NCBI GenBank assembly: GCA_965246895.1
Contig: OZ251993.1
Coordinates: 466,654 to 530,653, forward strand
Direction of reading: 5' to 3'
Source of the DNA: Alphaproteobacteria bacterium
GTDB taxonomy: Bacteria > Pseudomonadota > Alphaproteobacteria > JAIXQD01
Length of the DNA: 64,000 nucleotides
Shown: in pieces, positions 3,011 through 58,424 of the stretch
How the letters are laid out: each line of letters opens with the position of its first letter
Numbering within the stretch: position 1 is the stretch's first letter
Position numbers and translations under genes: made by a program
Notes under the pieces: model-generated
The model's database searches: none
What the model was told of the DNA's origin: nothing
The model's input: only the letters and a program-made list of their open reading frames with translations

Positions 3011-3046
3011 TACTGAATTAGGTTAAGAAAAATTAATTTAATCGAC

Positions 3047-3118
3047 TGGCGCAAAAGAAATGAATGATTAGGGCTTTTCACTTGGCGCAAAAGAAATGAA
3101 TGATTAGGGCTTTTCACT
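3047..3118. repeat. Perfect tandem duplication of a 36-bp unit
   Basis: TGGCGCAAAAGAAATGAATGATTAGGGCTTTTCACT at 3047-3082 and 3083-3118. Confidence 0.95.
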
Positions 3119-3153
3119 ATATTATAAATTGAAATTGATTTGAGGTGTTTTTC

Positions 3154-3528
3154 ATGTTCAATATTTGGCTAGATAAAAATCAAGATTATCAAACGCAACA
3201 TGCTGCTGTGAAAAGAGGCAGGGTTCCTATCTACAAGGGGATACGCCGATCCCTAATTGGGACACGGATTGTGGTTTTCGGACAAGCAGGTGAAGGCATT
3301 GATACAATGGCTTGGCCTGATGTCAAATTATCAGAAAAGAAAGCCAAAAAGCTAATTGATAATGCCGATGCTATTGGTGCTGCGTATGAAGGGTTTAGAC
3401 ACACGGAACGTTACAACGGCATAAATTTAAATTTGCTTGAAAGATTAACTGAAGACGATAAAATTTTAGCTCGTCAGGCGCTGGAAAAATTGGCTGCTCT
3501 AAAAAAGTCCAAAGGTTTGCAACGATAG
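3154..3528 (+). CDS. Hypothetical protein
   Basis: AT-rich ORF with GAGGT RBS before ATG 3154, followed by a terminator. Confidence 0.55.
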   Translation: MFNIWLDKNQDYQTQHAAVKRGRVPIYKGIRRSLIGTRIVVFGQAGEGIDTMAWPDVKLSEKKAKKLIDNADAIGAAYEGFRHTERYNGINLNLLERLTEDDKILARQALEKLAALKKSKGLQR

Positions 3529-3530
3529 GG

Positions 3531-3562
3531 TAAGAAAGGGCTGCATTTGCAGCCCTTTCTTT
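3531..3562. terminator. Bidirectional intrinsic terminator
   Basis: TAAGAAAGGGCTGCA-TT-TGCAGCCCTTTCTTA inverted repeat between convergent genes. Confidence 0.85.
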
Positions 3563-3567
3563 AACCA

Positions 3568-5361
3568 TTAAGCAGTTTTGCTTTCAGCCGTTTCATCATC
3601 ATCCACTCCGAGCGCGGCATTCGTTTCCGCCAATGCCTGTTCGGCTTTAAACAAGCTGCCGGCGCGGGCTTTTTGCTGAAGCGCGGCGCGGCGCGTAGCG
3701 CGTGAGGCAGCGCCTGGGCTTTGCGCCACTGTTTGCTTTACGGCGGGTGTTACCGCAGTAGGTTCGGCGGGCAGTTCACCCGATAGGTCAACGGACGCGG
3801 CTGACGCATTTTTGCTTTTGCGGGGTTGGGCAGGCGCGGTCGCAGGTGCCACTTCTGTTTCAACATGCGCGGCCGGCGTCTCAGGCGGAGTGGAAGCTTT
3901 CGGCATGGCCATGGGCTGGCCATCGTCGTCGCCGTTATCAGCGTCCGCTTCACTGATTTCAAAGCGACCGATGCGCTTTAAAGCGATCTTGGTTGCTGAT
4001 GAAACGGATGCCGGTGCCTGAGACAAAGCATGCTGGGGTAATGGCGATGACCGCCGTTCTGATCTTTGGGCGATCTGGCTGGCATGCCTCTGCTCGGCCG
4101 CATCTTCGGTCGGGTAATAAGGCTCGCCCGTATGCTCGACCTCAGCCAGACCTTCCAGCGTGATCTCGATATAGCCGCAGAGCCGCACCAGCGCGCGCGA
4201 GACAGAGGCGGGCGTCGTGAGATCGATTTCCGCGCCATAGGATACGCCGCGATTGGTGGCGCCATAGTCGGCCATTTGCCCATAGATCGAGGCGACTTGG
4301 CGGGCCAATACGGCGCCCAACAAACCAATCTGTTCAGCATGAGCTTGATAGATATAAGTGCGAAGGCGTGGCCAGGTCGGCGTGCCGCCGTTGGTGATGA
4401 GCGCGGCGCGTGCCTCGCAAATATCGCGAGCAGCGGCCAGTTCACCCGTTAATGCCGCGGCAAGGATTTGGCGATCGCTGTGGATGTCGAGCTCATGCGT
4501 CAGGCGCGCGCGCCGCGTGTGGCGGTGGTCGAGCAACATCAGCATGCCGAACAAGAGGCCCAGGAGGCCCAAGGCTTCGAGCCAGGCCGTAAAAGCAAAA
4601 TTGCCGTTGTCGGTAGATTTGTTGCTAGGACTAATGTCCTGCGACGATGCTGGGCCTCCCGTAAGACTAATCACGGGCGTCGGAGCAGTAGCAGATACGG
4701 GTGTGGCCGTAGAGGCTGGCGTTGCAGCTTTTAAAGGTGCGGTTGCAGCGACGGGTGCAGCGCCAGCTGTCGTCGCCGGCACCTGTGCCCATAGTCCATT
4801 ACGGCGCATTTGCGCGGTTTCCTCGGCGGCGCGATAGCGTACCGCCAAATCGTTATCAATCGTGCCATTGCGGCTGAAGAGCGCGGTGCCGGTGAACAGC
4901 ATAGCTTCCGACAGATCGCGGCCGCCGCCGAAGCTGCAGCTCATGACTAAACTACCGTCGCGGTCGCGGTCTTTACGCGCGCAGTCGAGCGTTTGATTGC
5001 GAAGAATGGTGTCGAGCGCAACACGGGCGCTGGCGCCTTCCGGCGTTGTGAGGGGTGGGGCAACGACACCGATCAAGCGGGCGGTAACATCGCGTGCGCT
5101 GTCATGAATACGGATGGTCGCGCCATCAATCGCCTGCGCGGTGCCCATCATGGTGGCGGGCGCTTCGTTGGAGACACCGACCTTCTCGCGATCAACTGAC
5201 GTACGCGGCGCGCGTGATGGAGCCGGCATAATATCGCTTTTCGGCTGCGGATTGGTTTGTGCGTAAAGCTGCGAATAAGTCAGCGTATTGGGCTGGGCCT
5301 GCGCCATAGTAATAGTGAGAGCGAAGAGCAGCGCCGAAAGCGGCAAGGAAAATTTATGCAT
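3568..5361 (-). CDS. Exported thermonuclease (SNase-like) domain membrane protein with low-complexity regions
   Basis: Signal peptide MHKFSLPLSALLFALTITMAQA; AIDGATI..RLIGVVAP..DRDRDG..AQMRRNGLW SNase-like pattern; a TM helix; Ala/Pro/Thr-rich linkers. Confidence 0.75.
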   Translation of the reverse strand: MHKFSLPLSALLFALTITMAQAQPNTLTYSQLYAQTNPQPKSDIMPAPSRAPRTSVDREKVGVSNEAPATMMGTAQAIDGATIRIHDSARDVTARLIGVVAPPLTTPEGASARVALDTILRNQTLDCARKDRDRDGSLVMSCSFGGGRDLSEAMLFTGTALFSRNGTIDNDLAVRYRAAEETAQMRRNGLWAQVPATTAGAAPVAATAPLKAATPASTATPVSATAPTPVISLTGGPASSQDISPSNKSTDNGNFAFTAWLEALGLLGLLFGMLMLLDHRHTRRARLTHELDIHSDRQILAAALTGELAAARDICEARAALITNGGTPTWPRLRTYIYQAHAEQIGLLGAVLARQVASIYGQMADYGATNRGVSYGAEIDLTTPASVSRALVRLCGYIEITLEGLAEVEHTGEPYYPTEDAAEQRHASQIAQRSERRSSPLPQHALSQAPASVSSATKIALKRIGRFEISEADADNGDDDGQPMAMPKASTPPETPAAHVETEVAPATAPAQPRKSKNASAASVDLSGELPAEPTAVTPAVKQTVAQSPGAASRATRRAALQQKARAGSLFKAEQALAETNAALGVDDDETAESKTA

Positions 5362-6101: not shown

Positions 6102-7608
<1,507 letters not shown>

Positions 7609-8158: not shown

Positions 8159-10897
<2,739 letters not shown>

Positions 10898-10987
10898 TTT
10901 ATGATCAGGTGTTTACGCGCAGTAACAAGCCCATCTTTGGTTTGCTATTGCTGCTGACTATTCGTTGTATATTTGCGATTATCGATC

Positions 10988-11105
10988 GACCTGGTGATTT
11001 TAGCGGGGGATCTGCACCCGATCCCATCCCGAACTCGGCCGTGAAAGCCCCCAGCGCCAATGGTACTATGACTTAAGTCATGGGAGAGTAGGTCATTGCC
11101 AGGTC
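10988..11105 (+). rRNA. rrf: 5S rRNA
   Basis: GACCTGG...CCAGGTC terminal helix; CCCATCCCGAAC and GGGAGAGTAGG motifs. Confidence 0.96.
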
Positions 11106-11230
11106 TATCGATCATCGCACTTAGCACATTCACATTTTTAACGCTGGCACAGATTACCGGCCGCCTGTTACAGGTCAGGCCGGTTTTGTTTTTCTGGTAG
11201 GGCATTCATTGCTGCTGCCACTTGGTTTAT

Positions 11231-11307
<77 letters not shown>

Positions 11308-11408: not shown

Positions 11409-11529
11409 GAGAAAACCGCAGTTTGTTATGGCAAACTGTTAGTGGCTTTTCGCCGAACAATTCTCTACATGTATTTGTGAACTCACATTAGGTTGTATTC
11501 TAAATTCATATTTGTCTTGGAGTGTTTTG

Positions 11530-13899
11530 ATGCCAACGGCACCTGAGAGTATTTTTGTTGTAGATGATGAATCCGCTTCGATGTACGGCAGCGTTCTGAA
11601 GAACATCTTTCCGCAATCGCCGATTTTAGCTTTCAGAGACGTTGAGGAAGCCATTGAAGCTATGGCAAGCGGTAGCCGTCCAGACTTGCTCTTCCTAGAT
11701 GCGACAGAGCATGGCTGGCATCCCGAATGGGGTGCTGACAATGCTTACAGCATTCTCGACTGGCTCAAAGTCAACGCACCTGAACAGCCTTTGCCTCACA
11801 TTGTCTTTCAGTCAAATGACGAAGAATTATCGGCCAAATCAAAAAGCCTCTTAAAGCGTCAGCTTTATGGTGAAAATATAGAGATTACATTTGATGTCAT
11901 CGATACTGAAAAGAGCGAACTGCAGGTAATTCAGGATATTGTAGGTTTTGAAGAGGGTGGCACACACATCACTCGCATAGGGCGTAACTTTACCAAGCTG
12001 CGAGAATTTCTTAACAGCCGTTACGATTACAATCTGCCAACTACACAAGAGGATATAGACGAACTGGCTTTATCTAAAGGCTCAACAGATCCCCAGGCTA
12101 TTCTACGTTTGGTCGAAAAAGGTAAGATGTCTCGCGATGATGCGCTTAGTAAGATTGCACCCAAATTAGAATCTCAAATCGTTTACGAATACAGCTCGCA
12201 AGTTGAAGCTTATGGCGAGGATTACGATACCAATAGAGCGATGTCGCTCCATTTTCAGCGCGGTACAGAACAGCCGGTCACTGGGCCTGCGGCCTTTAGC
12301 CATGCTGATATTGTGGCATTGGCGGGTAAAGGCAGTAAGCCGATCTTGATTACTGAAGATGTAACCCCAGAAATTATACAGCTTTTTGGTAGCATCGCCG
12401 GTCTGGTAGTTTTATCTCAAAAAGCCAGCGGGCATGTGGAAATGCTGGCACAGGCACATCGTATTCCAGCCTTGCTTGGCAGAACCAATATTCATCGGGA
12501 TGCGGGCAAACCACGCGTAAAACTGCATGCATCCAGCGCTGCGCCTTACTTGACGTTGCAGACTTCAGTCAATCTTCTGAATGGCACTGTGAAGGCTGAT
12601 ACTCTTATCAGACGCGGCGTTGAGGAAATTAAATTAATCGCGCCACATAAGCAGGCAACACCAAAAGATGAAGACGGCTATGGTAATGAGCGGGTAACGC
12701 ACCGAATTAAAATGACTATCCGTGCCGGTGATCAAATCACAATCGATCCGCCCTATACTTTATATGCCGTCTATTTGCCTATTAATGAGCGTGAAAATCG
12801 CTCTAATTCCTGGCTGCCCGAAGCAAGGACGCTAGTCTGCGACTGGCATGAAGATAACAATTTTGTGCGCCTAAAATTCAAACAAAACATTGATGATATG
12901 GGCCAATTATATTCGGGTAATAGTAACGACGGGATCGGCCTCGTGCGAACCGAGCATTTGGTTATTTCATCCGGCCGGACGCTTCAGGCATTCCGCGATT
13001 TTGTATTGCGCGGGGATGAGAGAGCCCTGGAAGATTTTGAGAGCAGGCAGCAAAATGATTTCATCAACCTGATGGACGTTATTTGCCGTGCTGACGACTA
13101 CCCGCTTCGTATCCGGCTCATCGATGCGCCGCCCAGCGAATTCTTTGACGAGCAAGGGTTAAGCGATATAGAGACAAGATACGGTGATCGCTCTATTCGT
13201 GGCGTGCAATTGGCCGTCAAAGCTCCCGAACTTTACGATGCTCAGTTAAGAGCTATTTTTAGCAGCTATAAGGAACTTAAAGACAAAGGTCAGGATAGTG
13301 ATTTCTACGAGGCTCCTAAGTCACCAGTTGAAATCATGGTGCCAACTGTACGTACCGTAGATGAGCTGATGTTTGTGAAGGCGCGGGCAGAAGTAATGGC
13401 GGCTGACCATGGCCTGACCAGAGATGATTATAGATTTGGCTCTATGCTCGAAACAATCGATGCCTGCGATAACATAGCTGCCATAGCGCCGCTTTGCGAT
13501 TTCATCAGCATTGGCTCGAATGATCTGACTTCGGAAATCCTCAACTGTGGTCGGGATGACTGGGCGCGCCGCCGTAAGCTGACTGTTGAGAGTGGCAAGG
13601 GCGCAGATCCATTTATTACGATGCATGCGGATGTCGTCGCCAAGCTCGTAGAAACAATTGAGCAAGCCTATGCATCTAACCCTACGCTTCAAGTTGATTT
13701 GTGCGGGGCGCATGCGGCTGATTTGCCATCCTTAAATGCCTTGCGTCCCCTTGAGCTTAACGGTGTATCTGCTCCGCCTTCGCCGCAAAATCAGGACGGC
13801 TTATCACTGCTGTATATGATGGACACTTTTAAGCTTCATCCGGCAAAACCTATAGGGAAGCGAAAAAAGAAAAACCGAAGTCCAAAGCCTTCGGTTTAG
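11530..13899 (+). CDS. Receiver-like domain fused to PPDK-like phospho-His and PEP-binding TIM-barrel domains
   Basis: N-terminal IFVVDDE...PDLLFLD...IVFQS; central SGHVEMLAQAHRIPALLG; C-terminal GIGLVRTEH, EIMVP, GSMLE, FISIGSNDLT, LCGAH; no ATP-grasp domain. Confidence 0.8.
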   Translation: MPTAPESIFVVDDESASMYGSVLKNIFPQSPILAFRDVEEAIEAMASGSRPDLLFLDATEHGWHPEWGADNAYSILDWLKVNAPEQPLPHIVFQSNDEELSAKSKSLLKRQLYGENIEITFDVIDTEKSELQVIQDIVGFEEGGTHITRIGRNFTKLREFLNSRYDYNLPTTQEDIDELALSKGSTDPQAILRLVEKGKMSRDDALSKIAPKLESQIVYEYSSQVEAYGEDYDTNRAMSLHFQRGTEQPVTGPAAFSHADIVALAGKGSKPILITEDVTPEIIQLFGSIAGLVVLSQKASGHVEMLAQAHRIPALLGRTNIHRDAGKPRVKLHASSAAPYLTLQTSVNLLNGTVKADTLIRRGVEEIKLIAPHKQATPKDEDGYGNERVTHRIKMTIRAGDQITIDPPYTLYAVYLPINERENRSNSWLPEARTLVCDWHEDNNFVRLKFKQNIDDMGQLYSGNSNDGIGLVRTEHLVISSGRTLQAFRDFVLRGDERALEDFESRQQNDFINLMDVICRADDYPLRIRLIDAPPSEFFDEQGLSDIETRYGDRSIRGVQLAVKAPELYDAQLRAIFSSYKELKDKGQDSDFYEAPKSPVEIMVPTVRTVDELMFVKARAEVMAADHGLTRDDYRFGSMLETIDACDNIAAIAPLCDFISIGSNDLTSEILNCGRDDWARRRKLTVESGKGADPFITMHADVVAKLVETIEQAYASNPTLQVDLCGAHAADLPSLNALRPLELNGVSAPPSPQNQDGLSLLYMMDTFKLHPAKPIGKRKKKNRSPKPSV

Positions 13900-13913: not shown

Positions 13914-13990
13914 TGGTTGCGGGAACAGGATTTGAACCTGTGACCTTTAGGTTATGAGCCTAACGAGCTACCGGGCTGCTCCACCCCGCG
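13914..13990 (-). tRNA. Prophage-encoded initiator tRNA-fMet(CAT)
   Basis: Reverse complement CGCGGGGTGGAGCAGCCCGGTAGCTCGTTAGGCTCATAACCTAAAGGTCACAGGTTCAAATCCTGTTCCCGCAACCA folds as a full cloverleaf. Confidence 0.95.
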
Positions 13991-15861: not shown

Positions 15862-16233
15862 ATGCCACAGGCCAGATCATACGAAAGCGATATTAGAGCG
15901 GCAGCAGACGAAGTCATGGGTGAATGCCCGCATGCCTTGCCGCCAGTTTCAGAATTGATGAGCAAGTTCTCGGACATAGACCAGCACCGTGACCAGCTAC
16001 TTAAAATGATGCATGCCAGTAGCCGTTATATGCAGAACATGATTACACCGCTGCAACACAGGTTGCTTTTGGAATTTACCGCTGTCCAAGCTGCCAAATC
16101 AGGCATTGAGCATGAAGAGATACTCGATGAAATCTGTGTGCGGTACATGCTTATGGACGCGCAAGAATTAAAAATCCGCGACTTCTGGGAAGCTCTTAAT
16201 TTTTCTTGGCACTACGCCGAGGGGAAGCTTTAG
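15862..16233 (+). CDS. Hypothetical protein, ORF6C-like C-terminus
   Basis: AAGGA RBS; ends RYMLMDAQELKIRDFWEALNFSW. Confidence 0.55.
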   Translation: MPQARSYESDIRAAADEVMGECPHALPPVSELMSKFSDIDQHRDQLLKMMHASSRYMQNMITPLQHRLLLEFTAVQAAKSGIEHEEILDEICVRYMLMDAQELKIRDFWEALNFSWHYAEGKL

Positions 16234-16669
16234 CGCCGGTCTTTGCTGACTTCGAAGAGAGATTCTGATCTTGGATACTTTCGAACAGATAACGCGTAAT
16301 GCGAACGGCTTCGGTCTTGTCGTTGATGCGGTCACTCAGCATCCGGCTGTATTGGCGCATCAGCTGCTCGACGATCTGTTCGTGACTAAGGAAAGCCAAA
16401 GCATCTGTATTCTGCATCACCCAAAGCATGCAGGCGCCCATGACCTCAAGATTTGGTGTAGGAGTCGAGCTATCTCCGAGCAGACGGCCAACTGGTACGC
16501 CGAGCGCCTTAGCCAGGAGGCTGAGGCTGGCAACTGTGGGGGAGCTGCTTTTGCCGTTAATAATGTCACGGACAAAGGTTTCACCCTTACCAGCCTTAAG
16601 GGACAACTCCCTCATGGTCAGATTGCGCTCTTTCATGAGCTTCGTAAGACTATGACTCAAAACATCCAT
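16196..16669 (-). CDS. XRE-family transcriptional repressor
   Basis: LMKERNLTMRELSLKAG..VRDIINGKSSSPTVASLSLLAKALGV HTH; no peptidase domain. Confidence 0.85.
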   Translation of the reverse strand: MDVLSHSLTKLMKERNLTMRELSLKAGKGETFVRDIINGKSSSPTVASLSLLAKALGVPVGRLLGDSSTPTPNLEVMGACMLWVMQNTDALAFLSHEQIVEQLMRQYSRMLSDRINDKTEAVRITRYLFESIQDQNLSSKSAKTGAKASPRRSAKKN

Positions 16670-16707
16670 AATTATGCATCCTGCAGTTTTTTTATTTGCC
16701 ATGCACG

Positions 16708-16722
16708 GGGGATATATCCCTT
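16708..16722. promoter_or_regulatory. Palindromic operator candidate, copy 1
   Basis: GGGGATATATCCCTT in the divergent promoter region; recurs inverted at 18695-18709. Confidence 0.65.
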
Positions 16723-16764
16723 GCATTTGGTTTTATCCCCTGTTATAACCATAGCGTAATAACC

Positions 16765-17154: not shown

Positions 17155-17225
17155 CTTTTATGCAGGTCTATTGCCGGGCCTGCATGATTGGGAAAACCGG
17201 CAAGAAACCATCACAGGAGGATTTA

Positions 17226-17585
17226 ATGGAACACTTAAGCCAAATAGAGAAAGACATGTTCCGCGAAGTCGCGGCTGTCATGTCGAAATACCAAGATCAA
17301 ACTCGTGAATTTGGCATGTGCCTGGTGCATGAGCATTTTGGCGTGGCTAACGACGAGATTATGCATGAGACCAACGATCCGATCAGCCGTATCCTGATCA
17401 CGAAGCCGGTCAAGATTGCTGAAATGCCTGCAGGTTCACACCCAACGCAATGGAAGATTATCCAAGGCGGAAAAGCCGAACCGACGCAGTGGTGCTGCAA
17501 CGATATCCAGGCCACGCAGTGGTGCTGTGATGATGACATTAAAGCTATTCAATGGTGCTGCGATGACATTAAAGCCGCAGCTTGA
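17226..17585 (+). CDS. Small protein with three C-terminal QWCC repeats
   Basis: AGGAGG RBS; FGMCLVHEHF motif; tail TQWCCNDIQA-TQWCCDDDIKA-IQWCCDDIKAAA. Confidence 0.85.
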   Translation: MEHLSQIEKDMFREVAAVMSKYQDQTREFGMCLVHEHFGVANDEIMHETNDPISRILITKPVKIAEMPAGSHPTQWKIIQGGKAEPTQWCCNDIQATQWCCDDDIKAIQWCCDDIKAAA

Positions 17586-17640
17586 TAGACTGGCGGTGCG
17601 GGCGGCAGGACTTGCCGCCCCATACCAGACGGAGATAGAT

Positions 17641-18630
17641 ATGAAACAACGCATATTATCGGGCGTACAGCCGACCGGCGACCTACATATCGGTAATTAC
17701 ATTGGTGCCTTGTCGGTTTGGACTGAAATGCAGGAGCAGTTCGATAGCCTATTCTGCGTGGTCGACCTGCATGCGATCACTATACCGGAAAGCATCAAAC
17801 CGCAGGAGCTAAAAAGCAAAATGCGGGATGTGGCGGCGCTCTATATTGCCTGCGGCATCGATCCCGATAAGGCAACCATCTTTATCCAGTCGCATGTGCA
17901 GGAACATGCTGAGTTAGCTTGGGTGCTGAATTGCACTACCCCGGTCGGCTGGCTGGAACGCATGACGCAGTTCAAGTCAAAATCCGAAAAGGCCAATAGC
18001 GTCGGGATGGGTCTGTTTGATTATCCAGTGCTTATGGCAGCGGATATCTTGCTCTATGATACGGATGTGGTACCAGTTGGGGATGACCAAAAGCAGCATA
18101 TCGAGCTAACGCGCGATATCGCCCAGCGGTTCAATAACCTCTATGGTGTTGAAGTGCTAAAGGTGCCGCAACCTTTTATCCGCGCAGAGGGTGCCCGCAT
18201 AATGGGGCTAAACGATCCAACGCAGAAGATGAGCAAGAGCGATACCAATCCGAATCACGCCATCAAGCTGCTGGATACGCCGGATGTTATCAAAGGCAAG
18301 TATGCGCGGGCGGTTACTGATAGCAAGTCAGCCTTCGATCCTGAAGATATGGCACCGGGTGTTGCTAACCTCGTCAGCATCATCAAGGTGATGGCAGGTA
18401 GTGCTGGGGAAACCATAGTTGCTGACCTGGTCGGGAAAGGTTACGGATCGCTGAAGAAAGCGGCAACCGATGCCACTGTCGAAAGACTGGAGCCAATCCA
18501 ATCCCGCTTTGCCGAGTTACAGCAACAGCCGGATGAACTGGAGGCGATCCTGCAGCGCGGGGCTGAACGAGCGAGAAGCATTGCACGGCCTAAAATGCAG
18601 CAGGTCAAAGCTGCAGTCGGCCTGGGATAA
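17641..18630 (+). CDS. trpS: Tryptophan--tRNA ligase (prophage-borne copy)
   Basis: SGVQPTG, HIGN, YPVLMAADIL, VPVGDDQKQH and KMSKS; GGAG RBS. Confidence 0.97.
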   Translation: MKQRILSGVQPTGDLHIGNYIGALSVWTEMQEQFDSLFCVVDLHAITIPESIKPQELKSKMRDVAALYIACGIDPDKATIFIQSHVQEHAELAWVLNCTTPVGWLERMTQFKSKSEKANSVGMGLFDYPVLMAADILLYDTDVVPVGDDQKQHIELTRDIAQRFNNLYGVEVLKVPQPFIRAEGARIMGLNDPTQKMSKSDTNPNHAIKLLDTPDVIKGKYARAVTDSKSAFDPEDMAPGVANLVSIIKVMAGSAGETIVADLVGKGYGSLKKAATDATVERLEPIQSRFAELQQQPDELEAILQRGAERARSIARPKMQQVKAAVGLG

Positions 18631-18721: not shown

Positions 18722-19288
18722 ATGAGCAAAGATATTCAGGAAAAGTTCAAAGCCAACATACAGGTTATGCGGCTCTGGCCGAGTGACGGAGCTGCCTATG
18801 GTGAGATCCGGAAAATGTCACTGGAGGAGTCACCCAACTCCTTTGCTTATTTAGCAGTAGATGAGGCGCATATGACTGCAGAAGATCATGGCCGCTATAT
18901 CGACAGCGCTGTAGTGCTCGGTGCTAAATACAAAGGCTTTGCCAGCGAACCGCTGATCGGCATTGTGTCGCTCTGTACCTTACCAGGTCGTCTTAAGCAT
19001 ATGTGTGAACTGACGCGCCTCTATGTGCATCCTGATTTCCGTGGCCAGGGTGTATCGAACGCTCTTATGGAGCGCTTTTACAGCGAAGCCAGAACGCATT
19101 GGATGGATGGCTGCAAGCTATCAGTCGCTGAAACTAACGCTGCCGCTTATAGATTTTACCAGCGACACGGGTTTGAGGTTTACGGTAGGCTCGAAGATGA
19201 ATTCAATTCGACTGAAGGCCGTGTTGCAGGCGTGCACATGATTAAGCGGCTGACGTCGCTTAAGTGTGGAAGCCCTGCAAATGTATGA
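18722..19288 (+). CDS. GNAT family N-acetyltransferase
   Basis: RLYVHPDFRGQGVS and NAAAYRFYQRHGF motifs. Confidence 0.92.
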   Translation: MSKDIQEKFKANIQVMRLWPSDGAAYGEIRKMSLEESPNSFAYLAVDEAHMTAEDHGRYIDSAVVLGAKYKGFASEPLIGIVSLCTLPGRLKHMCELTRLYVHPDFRGQGVSNALMERFYSEARTHWMDGCKLSVAETNAAAYRFYQRHGFEVYGRLEDEFNSTEGRVAGVHMIKRLTSLKCGSPANV

Positions 19289-20021
19289 AGTCATAAATCC
19301 TGAGTCTAAAGCATCTGTTGTTTTGCTAGTTGAGCATGCGGGGGCGACAATTCCGGCTGAGCTGGATAACCTCGGCTTACCTGCTGGCCAATTCAATGAA
19401 GATCCGCAGATGTTTTACGACCCAGGATCGCGTGATATGGCTATGCGGATCGGTCAGGCGCTTGGCCTGTCGATCTATTTTGGCCAACTATCCCGCCTAG
19501 TTGTTGATCTCAATCGCGAGGACGACCACACAGATTTAATTAAAGCCAAGTTTCATGGCCGAGACATTCCAGGTAATCAGAACTTGTCAGATAGCGAGCG
19601 CCGGACTCGATTGGAAAAGTATTATAAGCCATTCCATACGGCGCTTCGATCTGATCTAGCAAAACGCCAAGAGGCAGGTGTGTCTACCAAGCTAATCAGC
19701 ATTCATTCGTTTAACGCCGATGTAGCCTTTGCAACTTTTCCTGATCTCCAGCGTGAGCCAGTAGACATAGCGATTCTGTACGATGAAGAGTCTCAGCTAG
19801 TTAGAGATTTTCGGGCGACCATCAAACCAGGCAACTACGCTATTAAAGAAAATTATCCTTACGATCTCAGTGTTATGCAAACGGGTAGCATCTTGCAAAA
19901 CAAAAAGTTGTTTAAATTAGATGCTATAGGCATCGAGATTAATTCAGCACGACTAACCAATGCGGCTGACTTTACGGCTATCCAATCTACGCTACTTCAA
20001 GCTATCAAATTGGTAGTTTAA
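19281..20021 (+). CDS. N-formylglutamate amidohydrolase family protein
   Basis: EHAG, YDPG, SRLVVDLNR, IPGN, YYKPFH, SIHSF, NYPY and IEI motifs. Confidence 0.88.
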   Translation: MYEVINPESKASVVLLVEHAGATIPAELDNLGLPAGQFNEDPQMFYDPGSRDMAMRIGQALGLSIYFGQLSRLVVDLNREDDHTDLIKAKFHGRDIPGNQNLSDSERRTRLEKYYKPFHTALRSDLAKRQEAGVSTKLISIHSFNADVAFATFPDLQREPVDIAILYDEESQLVRDFRATIKPGNYAIKENYPYDLSVMQTGSILQNKKLFKLDAIGIEINSARLTNAADFTAIQSTLLQAIKLVV

Positions 20022-20560
20022 ATCAGCCTGGTGACGCTATTGGTAACCACACCCAAGATCTCGAACTCATCGTTTGCCTTGATCTCAATCGGCTTATACT
20101 TAGCATTTTCCGGCATTAGGTAGGTTTTACCCTTGTGTCTTTTAAGTCGCTTGACGGTGGTTTCGCCATTAACAGAGGCTACCACGATCTTACCGCTCCG
20201 AACTTCAAGAGTGCGATCAACAACTAATGTGTCGCCATCCTGAATACGCGCACCGATCATTGAGTCGCCCTTTACTGGAATTAGAAATGTTTCCTGCGGG
20301 CTTTTAACAAGCCAAGCTGGCAGATCAACCATCTCTTCAATGTATGACTCGGAATGTATCGGCGTACCTGCCGGAACTTTTGCTGCATACAGTGGGATGC
20401 TATAGCCACGCGACGAAATAAATTCACTAACTTTTGAGTGCATACTATTAGGCACACGCATCGGGCTTGTGCGTTCACCAAAGCGACCTGTACCACGCTT
20501 GCGACCCGCGCCAGGACGATTGCCTCCACGCACAACTGAATTTTCCAACGTTCTTTTCAT
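20018..20560 (-). CDS. umuD: UmuD/LexA-like S24 peptidase with N-terminal RGGxRPGAGRK motif
   Basis: VPAG cleavage site, GDSM catalytic Ser, TVKRL catalytic Lys; no umuC in the window. Confidence 0.85.
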   Translation of the reverse strand: MKRTLENSVVRGGNRPGAGRKRGTGRFGERTSPMRVPNSMHSKVSEFISSRGYSIPLYAAKVPAGTPIHSESYIEEMVDLPAWLVKSPQETFLIPVKGDSMIGARIQDGDTLVVDRTLEVRSGKIVVASVNGETTVKRLKRHKGKTYLMPENAKYKPIEIKANDEFEILGVVTNSVTRLI

Positions 20561-20617
20561 CACAACCTCGATTAGCAATTGACGAAACAAGTTTGATTTG
20601 TGTAACACTAATCAAAA

Positions 20618-21489: not shown

Positions 21490-21753
21490 ATGACAAACAT
21501 TGAAAACAAAATCCCGGCTCCAGAAGCCCCATCACAACACCTAAATCAGTATCAGCTTTCCAAGCGCTGGAACGTATCGCAGAGCACTCTTGAGCGCTGG
21601 CGCTTCCTGCGCCGTGGCCCGAAGTTCCTGAAGATTGGCGCAAGGGTCGTTTATCGGCTTAGCGATATCGAGGCCTACGAGGCCGACAATATCCGCGAAG
21701 GCACCAATGCCTCCGAAATCTGCCAGAGCGGCCCACAGCGCCAACCACGGTAG
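21490..21753 (+). CDS. AlpA/excisionase-like HTH protein
   Basis: LNQYQLSKRWNVSQSTLERWR..GPKFLKIGARVVY. Confidence 0.88.
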   Translation: MTNIENKIPAPEAPSQHLNQYQLSKRWNVSQSTLERWRFLRRGPKFLKIGARVVYRLSDIEAYEADNIREGTNASEICQSGPQRQPR

Positions 21754-21769
21754 TCAGAGGGGCACTACC

Positions 21770-23008
21770 ATGTCAGCACCGCTGCCACCGCTCACAGCGC
21801 CCTTTGTAGAGGCGCTGGAGGCCGAAACCATACCCAAGCGCCGCCGTATCCTTGGTTGGTCGTTGATCCGCCAGCAGGTCAGCCTGCTGATCGCGCCACC
21901 CGGCATTGGCAAGTCTACGCTTGGTATCGCGCAGGCCATCGCCATCTGCACAGGCAACCGGCTCACCGGCCAGGAAGTTGTCGAGCAAGGCAATGTCTGG
22001 ATCTACAACAATGAGGATGGCCGCGACGAGCTTGAGCGCCGGGTGGCTGCCCTGCTGCAGTTCCATGAATTGTCGCCAGATGACATTGCCGGGCGGCTGG
22101 CGCTTTCCAGCGGTTCTGAACGGGCCTTGCTGGTAGCGCGGAGCGACAAGCGCGGGGGTGTGCTGCGCCTGCCTGATGTAGATGCCTGCATTGAGCTAAT
22201 CAAACGGCAGAATATCATTGCCTTGATCGTCGACCCGTTTACCGAAACCCACGAGGTACAGGAAAACAGTAACGAGCAGATCAAGCAGGTCGCGCAGTTC
22301 TATCGCGATATCGCCTGGCGCGGGGATTGCGCTGTGCTGCTCGTCCACCATACGGCTAAGCCGCCGCAAGGCAGCAGCGAAGGCCATGCGGGCAATATGC
22401 ACAGCGCACGTGGGGCCAGCACCCTCGCTGGTGTTGCTAGGGTCGTGCAGACCATCTTTTCCATGAGTAGCAAGGACGCCGCGCAGTTGGGTGTCCCAGA
22501 GACCGAGAAGCACCTCTACGTGCGCCTGGACGATGCCAAGGCCAATCTGTCGCTCGTCACCAGTCATGCCCTCTGGTTCAAGCGTGTAGGCATTACCATC
22601 GGCAACGGCGATGAGGTCGGCATCTTGCAGCCGGTCAATCTTCGGAAGCCATCGCCAGATGACACCGAGATCACGCTGCTGTACCGGGCCATCATGGACG
22701 CGCTGGTCGAGCGCATTAGGGAAGATCGCATCAGCGTGAACGCTGCCGCCAAGCAGTTGGCTTGGAGCGACGACCCGCAGTTCTACAAATACCGCGAGAC
22801 GGATAGCCGCAACAACAAGCGAGCCAGACGGATATTCCGCGAAGCCATTACCGACACTTGCCGCGCAGGCATCAGCGTCGAAACCGAAGGCTGCGTCCGC
22901 ACCTTTGTCGTGGTTGAGGGATCTAAGCCGATGCGCCTACAGCGGGTGCAGACGGTGCAACCATCCGAAGCCTTACCCGGAGAGGATTGTGATGCGGAGA
23001 GTGAATAG
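21770..23008 (+). CDS. RepA-like AAA_25 helicase
   Basis: Walker A APPGIGKS, NNED, LIVDP, LVHHTAK and ARGAS motifs. Confidence 0.88.
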   Translation: MSAPLPPLTAPFVEALEAETIPKRRRILGWSLIRQQVSLLIAPPGIGKSTLGIAQAIAICTGNRLTGQEVVEQGNVWIYNNEDGRDELERRVAALLQFHELSPDDIAGRLALSSGSERALLVARSDKRGGVLRLPDVDACIELIKRQNIIALIVDPFTETHEVQENSNEQIKQVAQFYRDIAWRGDCAVLLVHHTAKPPQGSSEGHAGNMHSARGASTLAGVARVVQTIFSMSSKDAAQLGVPETEKHLYVRLDDAKANLSLVTSHALWFKRVGITIGNGDEVGILQPVNLRKPSPDDTEITLLYRAIMDALVERIREDRISVNAAAKQLAWSDDPQFYKYRETDSRNNKRARRIFREAITDTCRAGISVETEGCVRTFVVVEGSKPMRLQRVQTVQPSEALPGEDCDAESE

Positions 23009-23949: not shown

Positions 23950-25176
23950 ATGACGAAATTCCAAACTGCAATGGCGCAGCGCATCGAGCTGTGGCCGGTC
24001 GACAGACTTGTGCCCTACGACAAAAACCCGCGCACCCATTCCGAAGAACAACTCGAACAGATTGCTGCCAGCATCAGCGAGTTTGGGTTCCTGAACCCAA
24101 TACTTGTCGACACATCGGCTGGCATCATAGCCGGTCACGGGCGGCTGCAGGCGGCAAAAAGGATTGGCCTGACAGACGTGCCCGTGGTCGTGCTAGACCA
24201 TTTGACCGAAGCTCAGAAACGCGCCTACGTCATTGCGGATAACAAGCTCGCGCTCAACGCAGGCTGGGATGAAGAACTGCTCCGCGCCGAAATCATGGCC
24301 TTGTCGGAGGAAAACTTCGACCTGCCGCTCATGGGATTTAGCGATGATGAACTTGCGGACATTCTTGCTGAGCCGGAAAAAGAAAATGGCGAGACGGACG
24401 ACGATGCAGTGCCTGAGGCGCCTATTGAACCTACCACCAAGCGTGGGGATCTTTGGCGCTTAGGCAACCATAACCTGCTCTGCGGCGATAGCACGGTGCT
24501 GACGGACGTCGAACGGGTGCTCGAAGGAGCGCTGGCCGACATGGTCTTTACCGATCCGCCCTATAACGTCGACTATGGCAATTCGGCTAAAGACAAGATG
24601 CGCGGCAAGGATCGCCGCATCCTGAATGACAATCTCGGCAGCGAGTTTGAGAAGTTTCTTTACGACGTTAGCGTCAATCTACTGACCGTTTGCAAGGGTG
24701 CGCTTTACATGTGCATGTCCTCATCGGAACTGCACACGCTGCAGAAAGCCTTTACCGACGCTGGCGGCAAATGGTCAACCTTCATCATCTGGGCCAAACA
24801 TATGTTCACGATGGGTCGCGCCGATTACCAGCGGCAATACGAGCCGATCCTATACGGCTGGAAACAAGGTGCGGATCATTACTGGTGCGGTGCCCGCGAC
24901 CAAGGCGACGTCTGGCATATCAAAAAGCCGATGAAGAACGATTTGCATCCAACGATGAAACCGGTTGAATTGTGTGAGCGAGCGGTTCGGAACAGCAGCA
25001 AGAGCCGTGACATTGTTCTGGATGTATTTGGCGGTTCCGGCTCGACGCTAATCGCCTGCGAGAAGCTGGGTCGGCAGGCGCGGTTGATTGAACTAGATCC
25101 AAAATATTGCGATGTCATCGTCAAGCGGTGGGAGGATTTTACAGGCAACAAAGCCGAGCTGGTAACTGATAACTGA
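23950..25176 (+). CDS. ParB-like domain plus N6/N4 DNA methyltransferase
   Basis: IIAGHGRL and IADNKLA (ParB-N); DPPY, HPTMKP and DVFGGSGST (MTase). Confidence 0.93.
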   Translation: MTKFQTAMAQRIELWPVDRLVPYDKNPRTHSEEQLEQIAASISEFGFLNPILVDTSAGIIAGHGRLQAAKRIGLTDVPVVVLDHLTEAQKRAYVIADNKLALNAGWDEELLRAEIMALSEENFDLPLMGFSDDELADILAEPEKENGETDDDAVPEAPIEPTTKRGDLWRLGNHNLLCGDSTVLTDVERVLEGALADMVFTDPPYNVDYGNSAKDKMRGKDRRILNDNLGSEFEKFLYDVSVNLLTVCKGALYMCMSSSELHTLQKAFTDAGGKWSTFIIWAKHMFTMGRADYQRQYEPILYGWKQGADHYWCGARDQGDVWHIKKPMKNDLHPTMKPVELCERAVRNSSKSRDIVLDVFGGSGSTLIACEKLGRQARLIELDPKYCDVIVKRWEDFTGNKAELVTDN

Positions 25177-26636: not shown

Positions 26637-27155
26637 ATGAGCGTATTATCAGTCAGCGCCTATGCACGGCATCGCGGGGTCAGCCATGTGGCAGTCCTCA
26701 AGGCGATCAAAACCGGCAGGATCGTCCGTGATGCAGACGGCACAATCGATGTCGCCAAAGCAGACGCTGCATGGCGCAACAACACCAATATGGCGCAGCA
26801 GCGCAAACCTGAAGCCGAGATCGAGCCGCAGGTAGAAGCAGCAGTGCCGCAGCCGGTCGCGGGCGGGCCGAGTTATGCCCAGAGCCGCGCCGTGCGGGAG
26901 GCCTACAATGCCCGGCTGGCAAAGCTCGATTACGAAGAACGCACCAAGGCAATGGTGCGGATCGATACGGTCAAGGTCGCCTGGTTTAGCATTCTGCGGG
27001 TGCTGCGGGACCGGGTGATGAACCTGCCAGACCGGCTTGGGCCGGTACTAGCATCCGAAACCGACCAGAAGATCGTGCGGGATCTGCTTGAGGCCGAGCT
27101 GCGACAGATCCTCGACGATGCCGCTGATGCAACCCTAACCATAAACACGAACTGA
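26637..27155 (+). CDS. Terminase small subunit-like protein
   Basis: LSVSAYARHRGVSHVAVLKAI HTH; lies immediately before terL. Confidence 0.8.
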   Translation: MSVLSVSAYARHRGVSHVAVLKAIKTGRIVRDADGTIDVAKADAAWRNNTNMAQQRKPEAEIEPQVEAAVPQPVAGGPSYAQSRAVREAYNARLAKLDYEERTKAMVRIDTVKVAWFSILRVLRDRVMNLPDRLGPVLASETDQKIVRDLLEAELRQILDDAADATLTINTN

Positions 27156-27157
27156 CC

Positions 27158-29041
27158 TTGCAAGCTTTACAAGAATGCCTGACGCATGCTGCCCTCGCGC
27201 TGCGTCCCGACCGCCTGTTGTCGGTATCTGGCTGGGCGGACGCAAACAGGTTCCTTTCGCAGACGGCTTCGGGTGAACCGGGGCCGTGGCGAACGGAGCG
27301 GACGCCGTATTTACGCGAGATCATGGACTGCCTGTCACCGAGCAGCCCTGTCGAAAAGGTCGTGTTTATGAAGGGTGCCCAGATCGGCGGTACCGAAGCA
27401 GGCAATAACTGGATCGGCTATGTCATTCACCATGCGCCGGGGCCGATGCTGGCCGTGCAGCCGACCGTCGATATGGCGAAGCGCTGGTCGAAGCAGCGTG
27501 TGTCCAGCCTGATCGAGACAACACCGGCTCTGCGTGACCGCGTGAAGGAAGCGCGGTCGCGGGATAGCGGCAATACAATTCAGAGCAAGGAGTTTCCAGG
27601 CGGCATCTTGGTAATGACGGGTGCCAATAGCGCGACCGGTCTGCGCTCGATGCCCGTGCGCTTCCTGTTCTTAGACGAAGTTGATGCTTATGAGTTTGAT
27701 GTCGACGGTGAAGGCGATCCGGTTGGTCTTGCCAGTCAGCGGACGATCACATTTGCCAATCGCAAGATCTTCCTGGTCTCGACACCAACGATCCAGGGCT
27801 TCAGCCGGATCGAGCTTGAGTACGAGCAGTCGGATCGGCGGCGCTGGTTCGTGCCATGCCCTGAATGCGACGAGTATCAGGTGCTGGACGAGAAACAGTT
27901 GCGCTGGCCATCGGGCGAGCCGGAAAAGGCGCTCTATTTCTGCATTCATTGCGGTTCGGCCATTCCAAGCCATCGTAAGCAGTGGATGAATGCGCGGGGC
28001 GAATGGCGGGCCGAAGCATCGGGTTTGGGTTTAGCAGCTGGCTTTCATTTGTCAGGCCTGAACAGCCCGTGGCTGTCATGGGCGCAGATCGCGGAACGCA
28101 AGGTTGCCGCTAAAGACGATGCGGCCATGAAGGTTTACGTCAATACCATAGAGGCCCGCACCTGGACTGAGTCAGGTGAAGCACCCGAGTGGCAGCGGCT
28201 ATATGATCGGCGCGAGGATTATAGGATTGGTGAAGTACCTGCGGGCGGTCTCTTCCTGACGGCAGGCGTCGACGTGCAGAAAGATCGCCTTGAGCTTGAG
28301 ATCGTGGCATGGGGCCGTGATCGTGAAAGCTGGTCGATAGACTTCCGGGTATTGCCTGGCGATCCGGCCAAGGCGGAGGTCTGGGCAGCGATGGACAGTT
28401 TGTTGGGCGAGACGTTCACTCACGCTAACGGCAACAGTCTGCCGATTATGAAGCTGGCCATCGACACCGGCTATTCGACGCAGGAGGTTTATGATTGGGT
28501 GCGAAAACAGCAGTCAGACCGCGTACTGGCGGTCAAAGGCGTTGAGCGCCTGAGTGCGGCCATCGGCTCACCCAGCCATATGGATGTGACCAGCAAAGGG
28601 AAACGTAAGCGCCGGGGTTTGCTGGTCTGGCCGGTCGGATCGTCGTTCAGCAAATCCGAGCTATATGGCTGCCTGCGGAAAGACAAACCCACGGATGATG
28701 AAACGGAAGCGGGGAAAAGCTATCCAGCCGGGTACTGCCACTTCCCTAAACATGGCGAAGAATACTTTAAGCAGCTGACCGCCGAGCGGCTAGTGACGGT
28801 CAAAGACCGGCGCGGCTTTCCGCATCGTGAGTGGCGGAAGCTGCGCGAACGTAACGAAGCATTGGACTGCCGGGTTTATGCCCGCGCTGCAGCCTCAGCT
28901 GTTGGGATTGATCGGTTTAACGAGTCCGTGTGGCTAAAACTTGAAGTGGCTTTAGGCAAGTTGCCTGTTGAAGAGCCGCAACAGCAGGTGGCAAGCAGTA
29001 AAGTGTTGCAGCGGCGGACAATTGGCAGCAGCTATATTTAA
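27158..29041 (+). CDS. Terminase large subunit (GpA family)
   Basis: KGAQIGGTE, FLDEVD, STPT, GVDVQ and NEALDC motifs. Confidence 0.96.
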   Translation: MQALQECLTHAALALRPDRLLSVSGWADANRFLSQTASGEPGPWRTERTPYLREIMDCLSPSSPVEKVVFMKGAQIGGTEAGNNWIGYVIHHAPGPMLAVQPTVDMAKRWSKQRVSSLIETTPALRDRVKEARSRDSGNTIQSKEFPGGILVMTGANSATGLRSMPVRFLFLDEVDAYEFDVDGEGDPVGLASQRTITFANRKIFLVSTPTIQGFSRIELEYEQSDRRRWFVPCPECDEYQVLDEKQLRWPSGEPEKALYFCIHCGSAIPSHRKQWMNARGEWRAEASGLGLAAGFHLSGLNSPWLSWAQIAERKVAAKDDAAMKVYVNTIEARTWTESGEAPEWQRLYDRREDYRIGEVPAGGLFLTAGVDVQKDRLELEIVAWGRDRESWSIDFRVLPGDPAKAEVWAAMDSLLGETFTHANGNSLPIMKLAIDTGYSTQEVYDWVRKQQSDRVLAVKGVERLSAAIGSPSHMDVTSKGKRKRRGLLVWPVGSSFSKSELYGCLRKDKPTDDETEAGKSYPAGYCHFPKHGEEYFKQLTAERLVTVKDRRGFPHREWRKLRERNEALDCRVYARAAASAVGIDRFNESVWLKLEVALGKLPVEEPQQQVASSKVLQRRTIGSSYI

Positions 29042-30229: not shown

Positions 30230-31750
30230 ATGAACGTATTTTCACGCCTCGGTCACGCGGCGCGCTTCGCCATGTCCGGACGTTTGTCGGCATCGGCATT
30301 CGGCAGCGGGTTTGAGGGAGCCATGCGGAACCGCCGCCTGGCTGCCTGGCGGGCGACCGAAGAGAATATCAATAGCCTGCTAGTTGCGGACGGCGATACT
30401 CTGCGGGCGCGGGCGCGGCAGACTGTGCGCTCTAATCCTTTTGCATCGAATGCGGCGGGCAGCTTTGTTGCCAACGCCGTTGGGGCGGGGATCAAGCCAT
30501 CCAGCTTGATCCCCGATACCGACCTTAAAGACCAGATCCAGCGGCTCTGGCTGCAGTGGACGGACGAAGCGGATGCCGATGGGTTGACCGACTTCTACGG
30601 TCTGCAGGCATTAGCTGCGCGAGCCATGTTCGAGGCGGGAGAATGTTTTGTGCGGTTCCGGCCGCGATTGCCGCAGGACGGTCTGTCCGTGCCGCTACAG
30701 GTACAGCTGCTTGAATCCGAGCATCTGCCGTTCGGCAAGAATGAAATAGCGTCCGGTGGCAACCAGATCCGCGCGGGGATCGAGTTCGACGCCATTGGTC
30801 GCCGTGTGGCCTATCACTTTTACCGCACCCATCCAGGCGACGGCACTGTGCAGAAAACGCGCGGGGAGATCGTCCGGGTGCCTGCAAGCGAGGTGCTGCA
30901 TCTCTACCGTCCGGATCGGCCTGGCCAGATCCGGGGTGTGCCGTGGATCTCGCCCGCATTGGTGAAGCTCTACCTGCTCGACCAGTACGACGATGCGGAA
31001 CTTGACCGCAAGAAGGTCGCGGCGCTCTTCGCCGGCTTTATTACCAAGACCTCGCCGGAGGATAATCTTTTAGGCGAAGGCATACCTGACCCACTGGGCG
31101 CATCAGTGGCCGGTCTGTCGCCAGGCATGATGCAGGTGCTGCTGCCGGGCGAAGATGTAAAGTTCGCCGAGCCAGCGGATGTTGGCGGCTCATACGAGCT
31201 GTTCCAGTACCGCATGCATCTTGCGGTCGCCGCGGCGCTCGGCATGCCGTACATGAATGTTTCCGGCGATCTTAAAGCCGCCAACTATTCCAGCATCCGG
31301 TCGGGGACGGTGGAATTCCGCCGCCGCCTTGACCAGTTCCAGCACACGACCCTGATCTTCCAGTTCTGCCGCCCCGTGTGGCAGCGCTGGCTGGACACGG
31401 TCGTGCTGGATGGCTCGGTTGCGCTGCCTGACTATCGGAACCAGCGCCGCGATTTCCAGGCGGTCAAATGGATCACGCCGAAATGGGAATGGGTCGATCC
31501 TCTGAAAGACCGGCAGGCCGAAAAGATTGCACAGGAATGCGGCTGGAAAGCGCCGTCCGATATTATCGAGGCTGAAGGCTATGACGTGGACGAGACATTC
31601 AACCGGATTGCCTCAGACCAGCAACGCGCCCGCGACCTTGGCATCAAACTGGGCGATCCCAGCAAGGTCGAGCCTGCAGCAGCTGCATCACCTCAAATGC
31701 CTGAGCCGAATGCTGAAGAAACCGTACCGGCAGAACAGGAGGCCGCATGA
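30230..31750 (+). CDS. Portal protein, lambda family
   Basis: RPGQIRGVPW, ANYSSIR and WVDPLKD motifs. Confidence 0.95.
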   Translation: MNVFSRLGHAARFAMSGRLSASAFGSGFEGAMRNRRLAAWRATEENINSLLVADGDTLRARARQTVRSNPFASNAAGSFVANAVGAGIKPSSLIPDTDLKDQIQRLWLQWTDEADADGLTDFYGLQALAARAMFEAGECFVRFRPRLPQDGLSVPLQVQLLESEHLPFGKNEIASGGNQIRAGIEFDAIGRRVAYHFYRTHPGDGTVQKTRGEIVRVPASEVLHLYRPDRPGQIRGVPWISPALVKLYLLDQYDDAELDRKKVAALFAGFITKTSPEDNLLGEGIPDPLGASVAGLSPGMMQVLLPGEDVKFAEPADVGGSYELFQYRMHLAVAAALGMPYMNVSGDLKAANYSSIRSGTVEFRRRLDQFQHTTLIFQFCRPVWQRWLDTVVLDGSVALPDYRNQRRDFQAVKWITPKWEWVDPLKDRQAEKIAQECGWKAPSDIIEAEGYDVDETFNRIASDQQRARDLGIKLGDPSKVEPAAAASPQMPEPNAEETVPAEQEAA

Positions 31751-58423: not shown

Positions 58424-58424
58424 T

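Follow-up and report, generated by a model that had tools for sequence, protein, structure and literature searches.

A small protein with three tandem Trp-Cys-Cys units is encoded by a prophage of an alphaproteobacterium (GTDB lineage Bacteria; Pseudomonadota; Alphaproteobacteria; JAIXQD01). Its gene lies in a stretch of 64,000 nt, referred to here as the window, which spans positions 466,654 to 530,653 of contig OZ251993.1 (assembly GCA_965246895.1). The protein, P0001, is a member of a family of cytoplasmic proteins of about 95 amino acids that, as judged by sequence comparison, is uncurated, widespread and unnamed. Given its conserved residues and its modeled structure, we tentatively favor the interpretation that P0001 is a dimer that binds a metal, a metalloid or a thiol ligand, functions together with membrane transporters and has acquired extra Cys-pair sites.

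Trp-Cys-Cys repeats and the family that carries them

The gene and the parts of its product are located as follows, in window coordinates.

17216..17221, + strand: Shine-Dalgarno sequence AGGAGG, 4 nt 5' of the ATG, as read from the sequence
17226..17585, + strand: P0001 open reading frame (ORF), 119 amino acids, stop included (ATG at 17226, TGA at 17583-17585)
17226..17504, + strand: predicted folded domain, residues 1-93, from AlphaFold2, the homodimer model and conservation
17481..17513, + strand: repeat 1, P86-A96 (PTQWCCNDIQA), whose TQWC lies within the last beta-strand of the modeled domain
17514..17546, + strand: repeat 2, T97-A107 (TQWCCDDDIKA), in the tail, modeled with low confidence
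17547..17576, + strand: repeat 3, I108-A117 (IQWCCDDIKA), in the tail, modeled with low confidence

An earlier note, made from the DNA letters, had described a tandem Trp-Cys-Cys small protein at 17226..17585. This description was borne out, and the translation is exactly as it had been given: ...FGMCLVHEHFGVANDEIMHE...PTQWK...PTQWCCNDIQA TQWCCDDDIKA IQWCCDDIKA AA. P0001 thus contains three QWCC(N/D)D repeats, and hence three vicinal Cys pairs, and the Trp residues of its C-terminal part are found at positions 76, 89, 99 and 110. Its close relatives among 5.8 billion clusters, P0002 (92% identity) and P0003 (73%), begin with the identical residues MEHLSQ, which match the P0001 start. The stretch 17563-17591 resembles a promoter only by its match to the consensus; two such sites were found, compared with 4.6 expected in shuffled sequences.

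Three WCC motifs occur in only one of the 11,984 stop-to-stop frames of at least 60 amino acids in the whole 1.69-Mb genome, and that frame is P0001. The frequency of QWCC expected from composition is 7e-8 per residue, and together these values exclude chance as the origin of the triple motif. At the DNA level, the copies show 30- and 33-nt periods, and over 32 nt they share 66-72% identity. All changes between copies within the QWCC codons are synonymous (TGC/TGT in copy 2, CAG/CAA in copy 3). The earlier note was therefore correct in reporting synonymous variation around a fixed QWCC, but this observation is based on two sites. Its proposal that the peptide is under selection is better supported by P0002 and P0003, each of which keeps QWCC in three of three copies while the flanking residues vary.

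In a HMMER pass over 1.84 billion cluster representatives (clusters at 50% identity), 252 fell within an E value of 1e-3, 31 within 1e-10 and one within 1e-30. Typical members are 92-110 amino acids long, about 95, and commonly end in (W/F/Y)CCD. Their match to P0001 stops at residues 92-94, which correspond to the first WCC. Named members are labeled "hypothetical protein" in their sources, and none of 35 aligned members has a significant match in Pfam or NCBIfam. P0001 has no match in PHROGs or PADLOC, the ESM Atlas gave no usable match, and a PDB sequence-profile search returned a single match with an E value of 1.3. Members are spread over Legionellales, Bacillota, Actinomycetota, and Alpha- and Gammaproteobacteria, where the genetic settings include plasmids, a site beside an integron integrase, and a prophage.

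Representative genomes rarely carry the family: it was found in none of 40 relatives of the window's genome that were searched, in two of the 203 genomes that were scored for the Tatlockia order (three more were unscored), and in two of 400 for its class (one unscored). Profile searches yielded one relative out of 14 pattern matches in genome contigs and three out of 22 in metagenome contigs. No relative was found among 10 pattern matches in viral contigs, where P0001 alone also gave none, and tblastn produced no match to P0001 in a phage collection. A scan of the 21 longer family proteins revealed no informative fused Pfam domain; one protein, P0103, resembles translated repeat DNA.

Conservation is concentrated in a small set of residues. 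Across 116 aligned sequences, E48 is present in 116/116, and H35, H37 and E44 are each present in 115/116. They are followed by C90 (114/116), W76 (113/116), F38 (111/116), R55 (109/116) and D51 (97/116), and the column after C90, usually Cys91, holds Cys in 100/116. Residues over-represented in the tail beyond C90 are Cys (5.3x), Tyr (2.1x), Gly (1.8x), His (1.7x) and Asp (1.3x). A CC pair is present in 56 of 157 family proteins, 16 of which end one residue past it. Of the 67 CC occurrences, 34 are preceded by W, 10 by F and 8 by Y, and 40 are followed by D. Distant members carry, in place of CC, either C-x3-C followed by His residues or other modules such as CSKKDH, CKQDKCK and CTKKxH. Because CC is replaced by modules of these Cys/His types, ligand-type residues are kept even in distant members.

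Repeat number, by which the earlier note had proposed to judge the tandem array, does vary among homologs: most have one copy, and two to seven copies occur in at least seven groups with different motifs. At most one CC is found in 149 of the 157 proteins, and two or three are found in the remaining eight (P0001-P0003, P0004, P0023, P0034, P0085 and P0077). The repeated unit is QYCCTD in P0004 (two copies) and CCG(D/E)G in P0023, P0034 and P0085 (two copies each). Seven copies of LQ(G/A)CSKKDH are present in P0124, four of ALQACTKKxH in P0128, three of (A/P)LTGCKQDKCK in P0081, and two of TEALTA in P0132.

A FastTree phylogeny was built from the N-terminal domain only, with 136 rows; 21 long, tandem or motif-less rows were excluded, and the tree leaves many forks unresolved. 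It requires at least seven changes of the repeat-bearing state, and the strand-plus-Cys module has therefore been amplified several times independently. The proteins with three QWCC copies form one clade with 97% support, and the triplicated WCC tail therein is a clade-specific amplification of the C-terminal module of the family. Each repeated unit carries the strand residues (TQW, LQG, LTG or LQA) that in copy 1 dock into the modeled domain.

Predicted dimer, proposed ligand site and transporter neighbors

AlphaFold2, run on P0001 with the 116-row alignment, gave a block pLDDT (predicted local distance difference test) of 90-96 over residues 1-90. The modeled elements are a helix (residues 6-20), a long irregular segment that includes the His-x-His motif (21-43), and four strands (44-51, 56-63, 72-78 and 84-90). 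Residues 96-119, comprising repeats 2 and 3, are below pLDDT 50. In the model, therefore, the last strand of the fold is closed by the first WCC. In the earlier note, a domain was said to end before the repeats begin. The repeats stand, but the domain is predicted to reach residue 93 and to include repeat 1. The model of the seven-repeat protein P0124 is similar in that its first LQGC module forms the last strand (102-107) of a domain with pLDDT >90, and its six other modules are of low confidence.

As modeled, this fold has no known match. Foldseek returned no match in the PDB at E<=1e-3, and the highest Z that VIA-align produced over 48,161 chains was 3.4; a putative Fe-S biosynthesis protein and SufA/IscA are found among its weak, tied rows. 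The best BFVD match, a Medusavirus "ureidoglycolate hydrolase", is non-significant (57 columns, root-mean-square deviation 2.1, E 0.11, probability 0.99). These weak matches are hints at most. The A-type Fe-S carriers IscA and SufA are small, beta-rich proteins with a Cys pair near the C terminus, and they rank near the top of the fold search, although at Z values far short of significance (2d2a, Z 3.1; 1r94, Z 2.8; 1x0g, Z 2.5). However, P0001 has no PF01521 match, and its motifs and topology differ. Similarly, the G-x4-H-x-H-x6-E stretch of P0001 resembles cupin motif 1, but there is no Pfam cupin match, no cupin among the listed PDB matches and no second cupin motif, and the BFVD match at E 0.11 is partial.

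Two copies of residues 1-95 were predicted together to give an ipSAE interface score of 0.84 in three of three runs, whereas the best of three controls reached 0.02. This mark is attained by 20 of 30 proteins whose solved structure is a pair of one chain and by one of 23 whose solved structure is a single chain, counts that hold only roughly for this run, which used its own alignment and had Zn riding along unscored. Between runs, at least 97% of the contacts agree, and the partner pLDDT is at least 87. The modeled interface consists of about 200 contacts in which segment 28-34 of one chain packs against residues 30-34 and 74-76 of the other, and it takes in residues 35, 37-40, 72-78, 88 and 90. 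These models support, but do not prove, an intertwined homodimer.

Twelve other family loci were read, with flanks of 1.5-6 kb in which part of the ORFs were screened by Pfam, record annotation or eye. They are described below.

L005, Tatlockia metagenome-assembled genome: a 415-amino acid polytopic protein (2776-4023) directly downstream, 35% identical to that of L006, no Pfam match
L006, metagenome: the homologous 401-amino acid polytopic protein (6271-7476) directly downstream, no Pfam match
L007, metagenome: a 344-amino acid protein with 2-3 hydrophobic segments
L008, metagenome: an ABC ATPase upstream of a tandem-domain member
L010, another Legionellales genome: a pair of the L005/L006 type, decayed
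L013, genome G470: small ORFs
L015, Planococcus plasmid: in this order, a MerR-family gene, P0019 and an MFS_1/MFS_3 transporter
L016, S. meliloti pSymB: ORFs resembling, by eye, a SAM (S-adenosylmethionine)-methyltransferase and a macro-domain protein
L017, Thiodictyon plasmid: a hypothetical-gene array beside an integron integrase
L018, Streptomyces plasmid: only a decayed fragment of the family gene itself
L019 and L020, Streptomyces plasmids: polytopic DUF6185 adjoining

A membrane protein or transporter adjoins the family gene in eight of these 12 loci. The earlier note had also asked which genes co-occur, and by this count the neighbors are non-random, with a polytopic membrane protein or transporter adjoining in most cases. 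In the Legionellales-type loci, the polytopic proteins of about 400 amino acids are always positioned directly 3' of a WCCD-ending member. In L019 and L020, the members have C-x3-C...His tails and are next to an 885-amino acid polytopic DUF6185 protein; no mention of DUF6185 was found in the literature searched. Because the family adjoins polytopic membrane proteins and exporters, its usual job is probably to hand over a ligand to a membrane transporter, or to sense a ligand on its behalf.

Several features argue for a binding or catalytic site rather than a leader peptide. These are the near-invariant His-x-His motif, two Glu residues, Asp, and one or two Cys residues; a domain that is confidently folded and probably dimeric; and tails rich in Cys, His and Asp in genes with exporter neighbors (and, once, a MerR-family gene). 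The earlier note had offered metal binding and Trp sensing as alternatives, and the former is the better fit to the near-invariant His/Glu/Cys set, whereas the case for the latter is weak.

In the mechanism we propose, the near-invariant His, Glu, Asp, Arg, Trp and Cys residues would form a metal, metalloid or thiol-reactive ligand site at or near the two-fold axis, and the C-terminal strand would bring its vicinal Cys pair to this site. Copy 1 would be structural. Copies 2 and 3, located on a flexible acidic tail, might function as extra capture or hand-over sites like the C-terminal Cys pairs of ArsD, or could alternatively swap into the place of copy 1. Among well-known proteins, the mercuric reductase MerA has a C-terminal Cys pair and CusF has a Trp cap.

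The nearest functional precedent for P0001 is ArsD, which hands over a soft metal(loid) (PMC4562236). ArsD resembles P0001 in being a small cytoplasmic protein with several vicinal Cys pairs (Cys12/13, 112/113 and 119/120), some of which are on the C-terminal tail, in its occurrence on mobile elements, and in having an exporter as its partner. However, neither ArsD (PF06953) nor MerA has sequence or fold similarity to P0001, and no ars or mer genes were seen among the examined neighbors. The P0001 family also adds to the ArsD pattern a near-invariant HxH/Glu/Glu/Arg/Trp set and the predicted intertwined dimer.

A number of observations weigh against assigning P0001 to ligand binding. The Zn in the dimer model was carried along without a score. 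Sequence and fold searches linked it to no metal-binding family (Pfam, NCBIfam, Foldseek at E<=1e-3, best PDB Z 3.4), and among the examined ORFs around P0001 no metal gene was noticed, whether ars, mer, cop or another. With the L006 membrane protein as the query, this genome yielded no relative of it. Ligand binding also leaves the near-invariant Arg55 and Trp76 without an explanation. Furthermore, all three orthologs retain the Q and W of both tail copies (2 and 3), which exceeds what simple thiol capture would need. This conservation fits a docking of each copy into the domain, which is also predicted if the tail is a substrate, and the recurrent amplification of the module fits a multi-core precursor equally well.

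The prophage setting

The P0001 gene sits in a tailed prophage, recognized with PHROGs, that directly follows an rRNA operon and a tRNA-Met gene (window 11231-51000). GC content is 0.48-0.50 from about 11.5 to 22 kb compared with about 0.60 further on, which places the gene in the low-GC accessory block of the prophage, ahead of structural genes with a GC of 0.6. The landmarks of this region are listed here, with strand where recorded.

6102-7602: 16S rRNA
8159-10900: 23S rRNA
10990-11104: 5S rRNA
11231-11307: tRNA-Met
13914-13990, - strand: second tRNA-Met
16196-16726, - strand: cI-like helix-turn-helix gene, upstream of P0001
16696-17154: weak match to DUF3489, upstream of P0001
17590..17628, + strand: GC-rich hairpin in the gap that separates the ORF from trpS (loop GGACT, core stem 17600-17607/17613-17620, no U-run after it)
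17641..18630, + strand: trpS2, auxiliary tryptophan-tRNA ligase (PF00579, 2.4e-77; ribosome-binding site GGAG at 17631-17634)
18722..19288, + strand: GNAT N-acetyltransferase (PF13508/PF00583; NCBIfam matches sub-threshold)
19266..20021, + strand: N-formylglutamate amidohydrolase-family protein (FGase; PF05013, 2.4e-26), whose start overlaps the GNAT gene by 23 nt
20018-20608, - strand: S24 LexA/UmuD-like gene, downstream
21490-21753: excisionase-like gene (PHROGs)
21635-23008: primase/helicase-like gene (PHROGs)
23950-25176: ParB-methyltransferase (PHROGs)
26637-29041: terminase subunits (PHROGs)
30230-31750: portal (PHROGs)
31747-33039: protease (PHROGs)
33711-34757: major head protein (PHROGs)
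37815-40364: tape measure protein (PHROGs)
44949-48137: tail protein (PHROGs)

A gap of 55 nt separates the P0001 stop from the start of trpS2 on the same strand, and P0001 probably shares a transcript with the genes for the auxiliary tryptophanyl-tRNA synthetase (TrpRS), the GNAT protein and the amidohydrolase. The same ORF-trpS junction exists in a second study, because a 152-nt contig from a lichen metagenome spans 17508-17655 with zero differences. The synthetase itself scores 361.7 bits for TIGR00233 against a cut-off of 176.75, and matches to TrpRS entries in the PDB reach an E value of 2.5e-99; its best solved relatives are those that we take to come from gamma-proteobacteria and Bacillus. 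Since the genome holds another intact trpS (genome coordinates 710955-711983) that is 38% identical to the prophage copy, the latter can be considered auxiliary. A trpS is found beside the family gene in none of the 12 other loci, and we take the link between P0001 and the second TrpRS to be operonic rather than mechanistic.

Other observations were made in this region. The FGase-family gene scores 32 versus 279 bits, which is far under the hutG equivalog cut-off. Between the two tRNA-Met genes, in the low-GC block, a 795-amino acid protein (11512-13899) has a C-terminal half like that of phosphoenolpyruvate-utilizing enzymes and pyruvate phosphate dikinase (PF02896, 2e-29) and an N-terminal part of about 270 amino acids with no family match. 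In contigs of other samples, the 5S rRNA (about 11103) is joined to 13995 on the opposite strand, with 11067-11230 skipped; because of these joins, the region between the two tRNA-Met genes seems to be differently arranged in related organisms. Past the prophage tail genes, at 52000-62000 of the window, there is a second low-GC stretch (0.44-0.47) with large ORFs at 53199-55745, 55733-58423 and 58701-60182.

Alternative explanations and implications

The earlier note had likened the layout of P0001 to multi-core precursors of RiPPs, peptides that are made by ribosomes and then modified post-translationally. In its self-processing form, this idea holds that the dimeric His/Glu domain modifies its own (W)CC modules serially and that the neighboring membrane protein exports the products. 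We consider this unlikely, although less so than the other alternatives named below. Large-leader multi-core precursors are represented by NHLP/Nif11-type proteins, the cyanobactin precursor PatE, and borosin-type fusions of enzyme and core. Like them, the family combines a conserved N-terminal part with C-terminal Cys modules that vary in motif and in copy number from one to seven, and exporters are found nearby. The eight proteins with two or three CC pairs, together with the seven, four and three copies of other Cys modules in P0124, P0128 and P0081, are what such a precursor would be expected to show. The same is true of the seven or more repeat-state changes, which come from a weakly resolved tree of 136 rows with 21 excluded. 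It would also be expected that every repeated unit includes the domain-docking strand residues, that the second and third copies, in the tail, conserve Q and W, and that a membrane protein or exporter adjoins the gene at eight of 12 other loci.

Against a precursor role stands the lack of recognized machinery. No known RiPP maturase family was recognized in the window or in L005-L008, L013 and L015-L020, where the flanks are short and part of the ORFs were screened; nor were radical-SAM, YcaO, LanB/C/M, DUF692, ATP-grasp, P450 or peptidase genes recognized in the loci examined to this extent. P0001 has no cleavage motif or site of the double-Gly type, and no peptidase gene is linked to its gene. 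The first "core" is a beta-strand of the modeled domain (residues 84-90, at pLDDT >90), as it also is in P0124, and this domain is modeled as a homodimer. Most members have a single module and end right after it: at most one CC occurs in 149 of 157 proteins, and in the 16 of 56 that stop one residue after CC, the "core" would be a few residues within the fold. The window's own copy also has no exporter adjoining it. Thus, of the proposed RiPP layout, the conserved N-terminal domain with Cys modules of variable copy number holds up, whereas no maturase was recognized among the ORFs screened and the first core is modeled as part of the domain. A literature search for Cys-Cys RiPP precursors with an MFS transporter yielded nothing relevant among the matches listed, for a family that is without a searchable name.

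A more elaborate version, to which we give little credence, would tie self-processing to the genes that follow P0001. An intertwined dimeric metallo-domain would convert its own Trp-Cys-Cys modules by feeding the tail copies, one by one, into the site of copy 1, and a small Cys- or Trp-derived product would be exported by the membrane protein next door. In this prophage, the exporter would be replaced by a self-protection kit consisting of the spare TrpRS, the GNAT protein and the amidohydrolase. If true, this arrangement would imply that the product targets TrpRS. Immunity genes for inhibitors of aminoacyl-tRNA synthetases, such as microcin C, are comparable to a kit of this kind.

It is improbable to a slightly greater degree that P0001 is a partner or regulator of the prophage TrpRS, or that the four genes constitute a module that shields translation from a TrpRS-directed toxin or inhibitor. 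The four genes do share a strand and are separated by short gaps or overlap, the TrpRS of this island is full-scoring and only 38% identical to the host copy, and kinase toxins that inhibit TrpS have reportedly been found. The prophage TrpRS could bypass TrpS-directed toxins or inhibitors. However, this proposal for P0001 derives from gene order, trpS adjoins none of the 12 other family loci, and family matches for the GNAT and FGase proteins are no more than generic.

Least probable of all is that P0001 acts as a Trp-codon sensor, in which ribosomes on three UGG codons (four with W76) would couple the charging of tRNA-Trp to trpS2 expression. Trp codons upstream of a Trp-related gene are a likeness to known leaders and attenuators such as trpL, and two reports describe a predicted attenuator upstream of trpS2 in S. 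avermitilis (PMC1262725) and a Trp motif (WWW) within full-length Chlamydia YtgCR that senses Trp (PMC7755916). The shared strand, the 55-nt gap, the recurrence of the junction in the lichen metagenome, and the stable hairpin between P0001 and trpS2 (the fold of 17470-17660 has a free energy of -62 kcal/mol and a z of -2.29) would be compatible with such control. But W before CC is a family trait in the absence of a nearby trpS (34 of 67 CC occurrences, with L005, L006 and L007 all having it), and the Trp codons of P0001 are 10-11 codons apart, whereas those of the precedents are sequential (PMC7755916; PMC1262725). Moreover, the hairpin has no U-run, a terminator scan reported no terminator-like site at 17590-17628, and alternative pairings were judged by eye. 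The polarity caused by stalling would cut trpS expression just when it is needed, and the 119-amino acid ORF belongs to a conserved family modeled as a folded dimer, unlike a leader peptide. The remaining probability lies with functions outside those considered here.

Regardless of which function applies, the family is widespread, with at least 252 clusters at 50% identity, yet undescribed in the databases searched. Its fold is unmatched, its intertwined dimer is predicted with confidence, and a set of its His, Glu and Cys residues is sharply conserved. If its members are metal or metalloid chaperones, they would constitute a new class of accessory proteins that partner MFS and ABC exporters. 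If they instead process themselves, they would provide a new route to peptide-derived products. In addition, the second TrpRS of the prophage is interesting with regard to conflicts between phage and host over translation.

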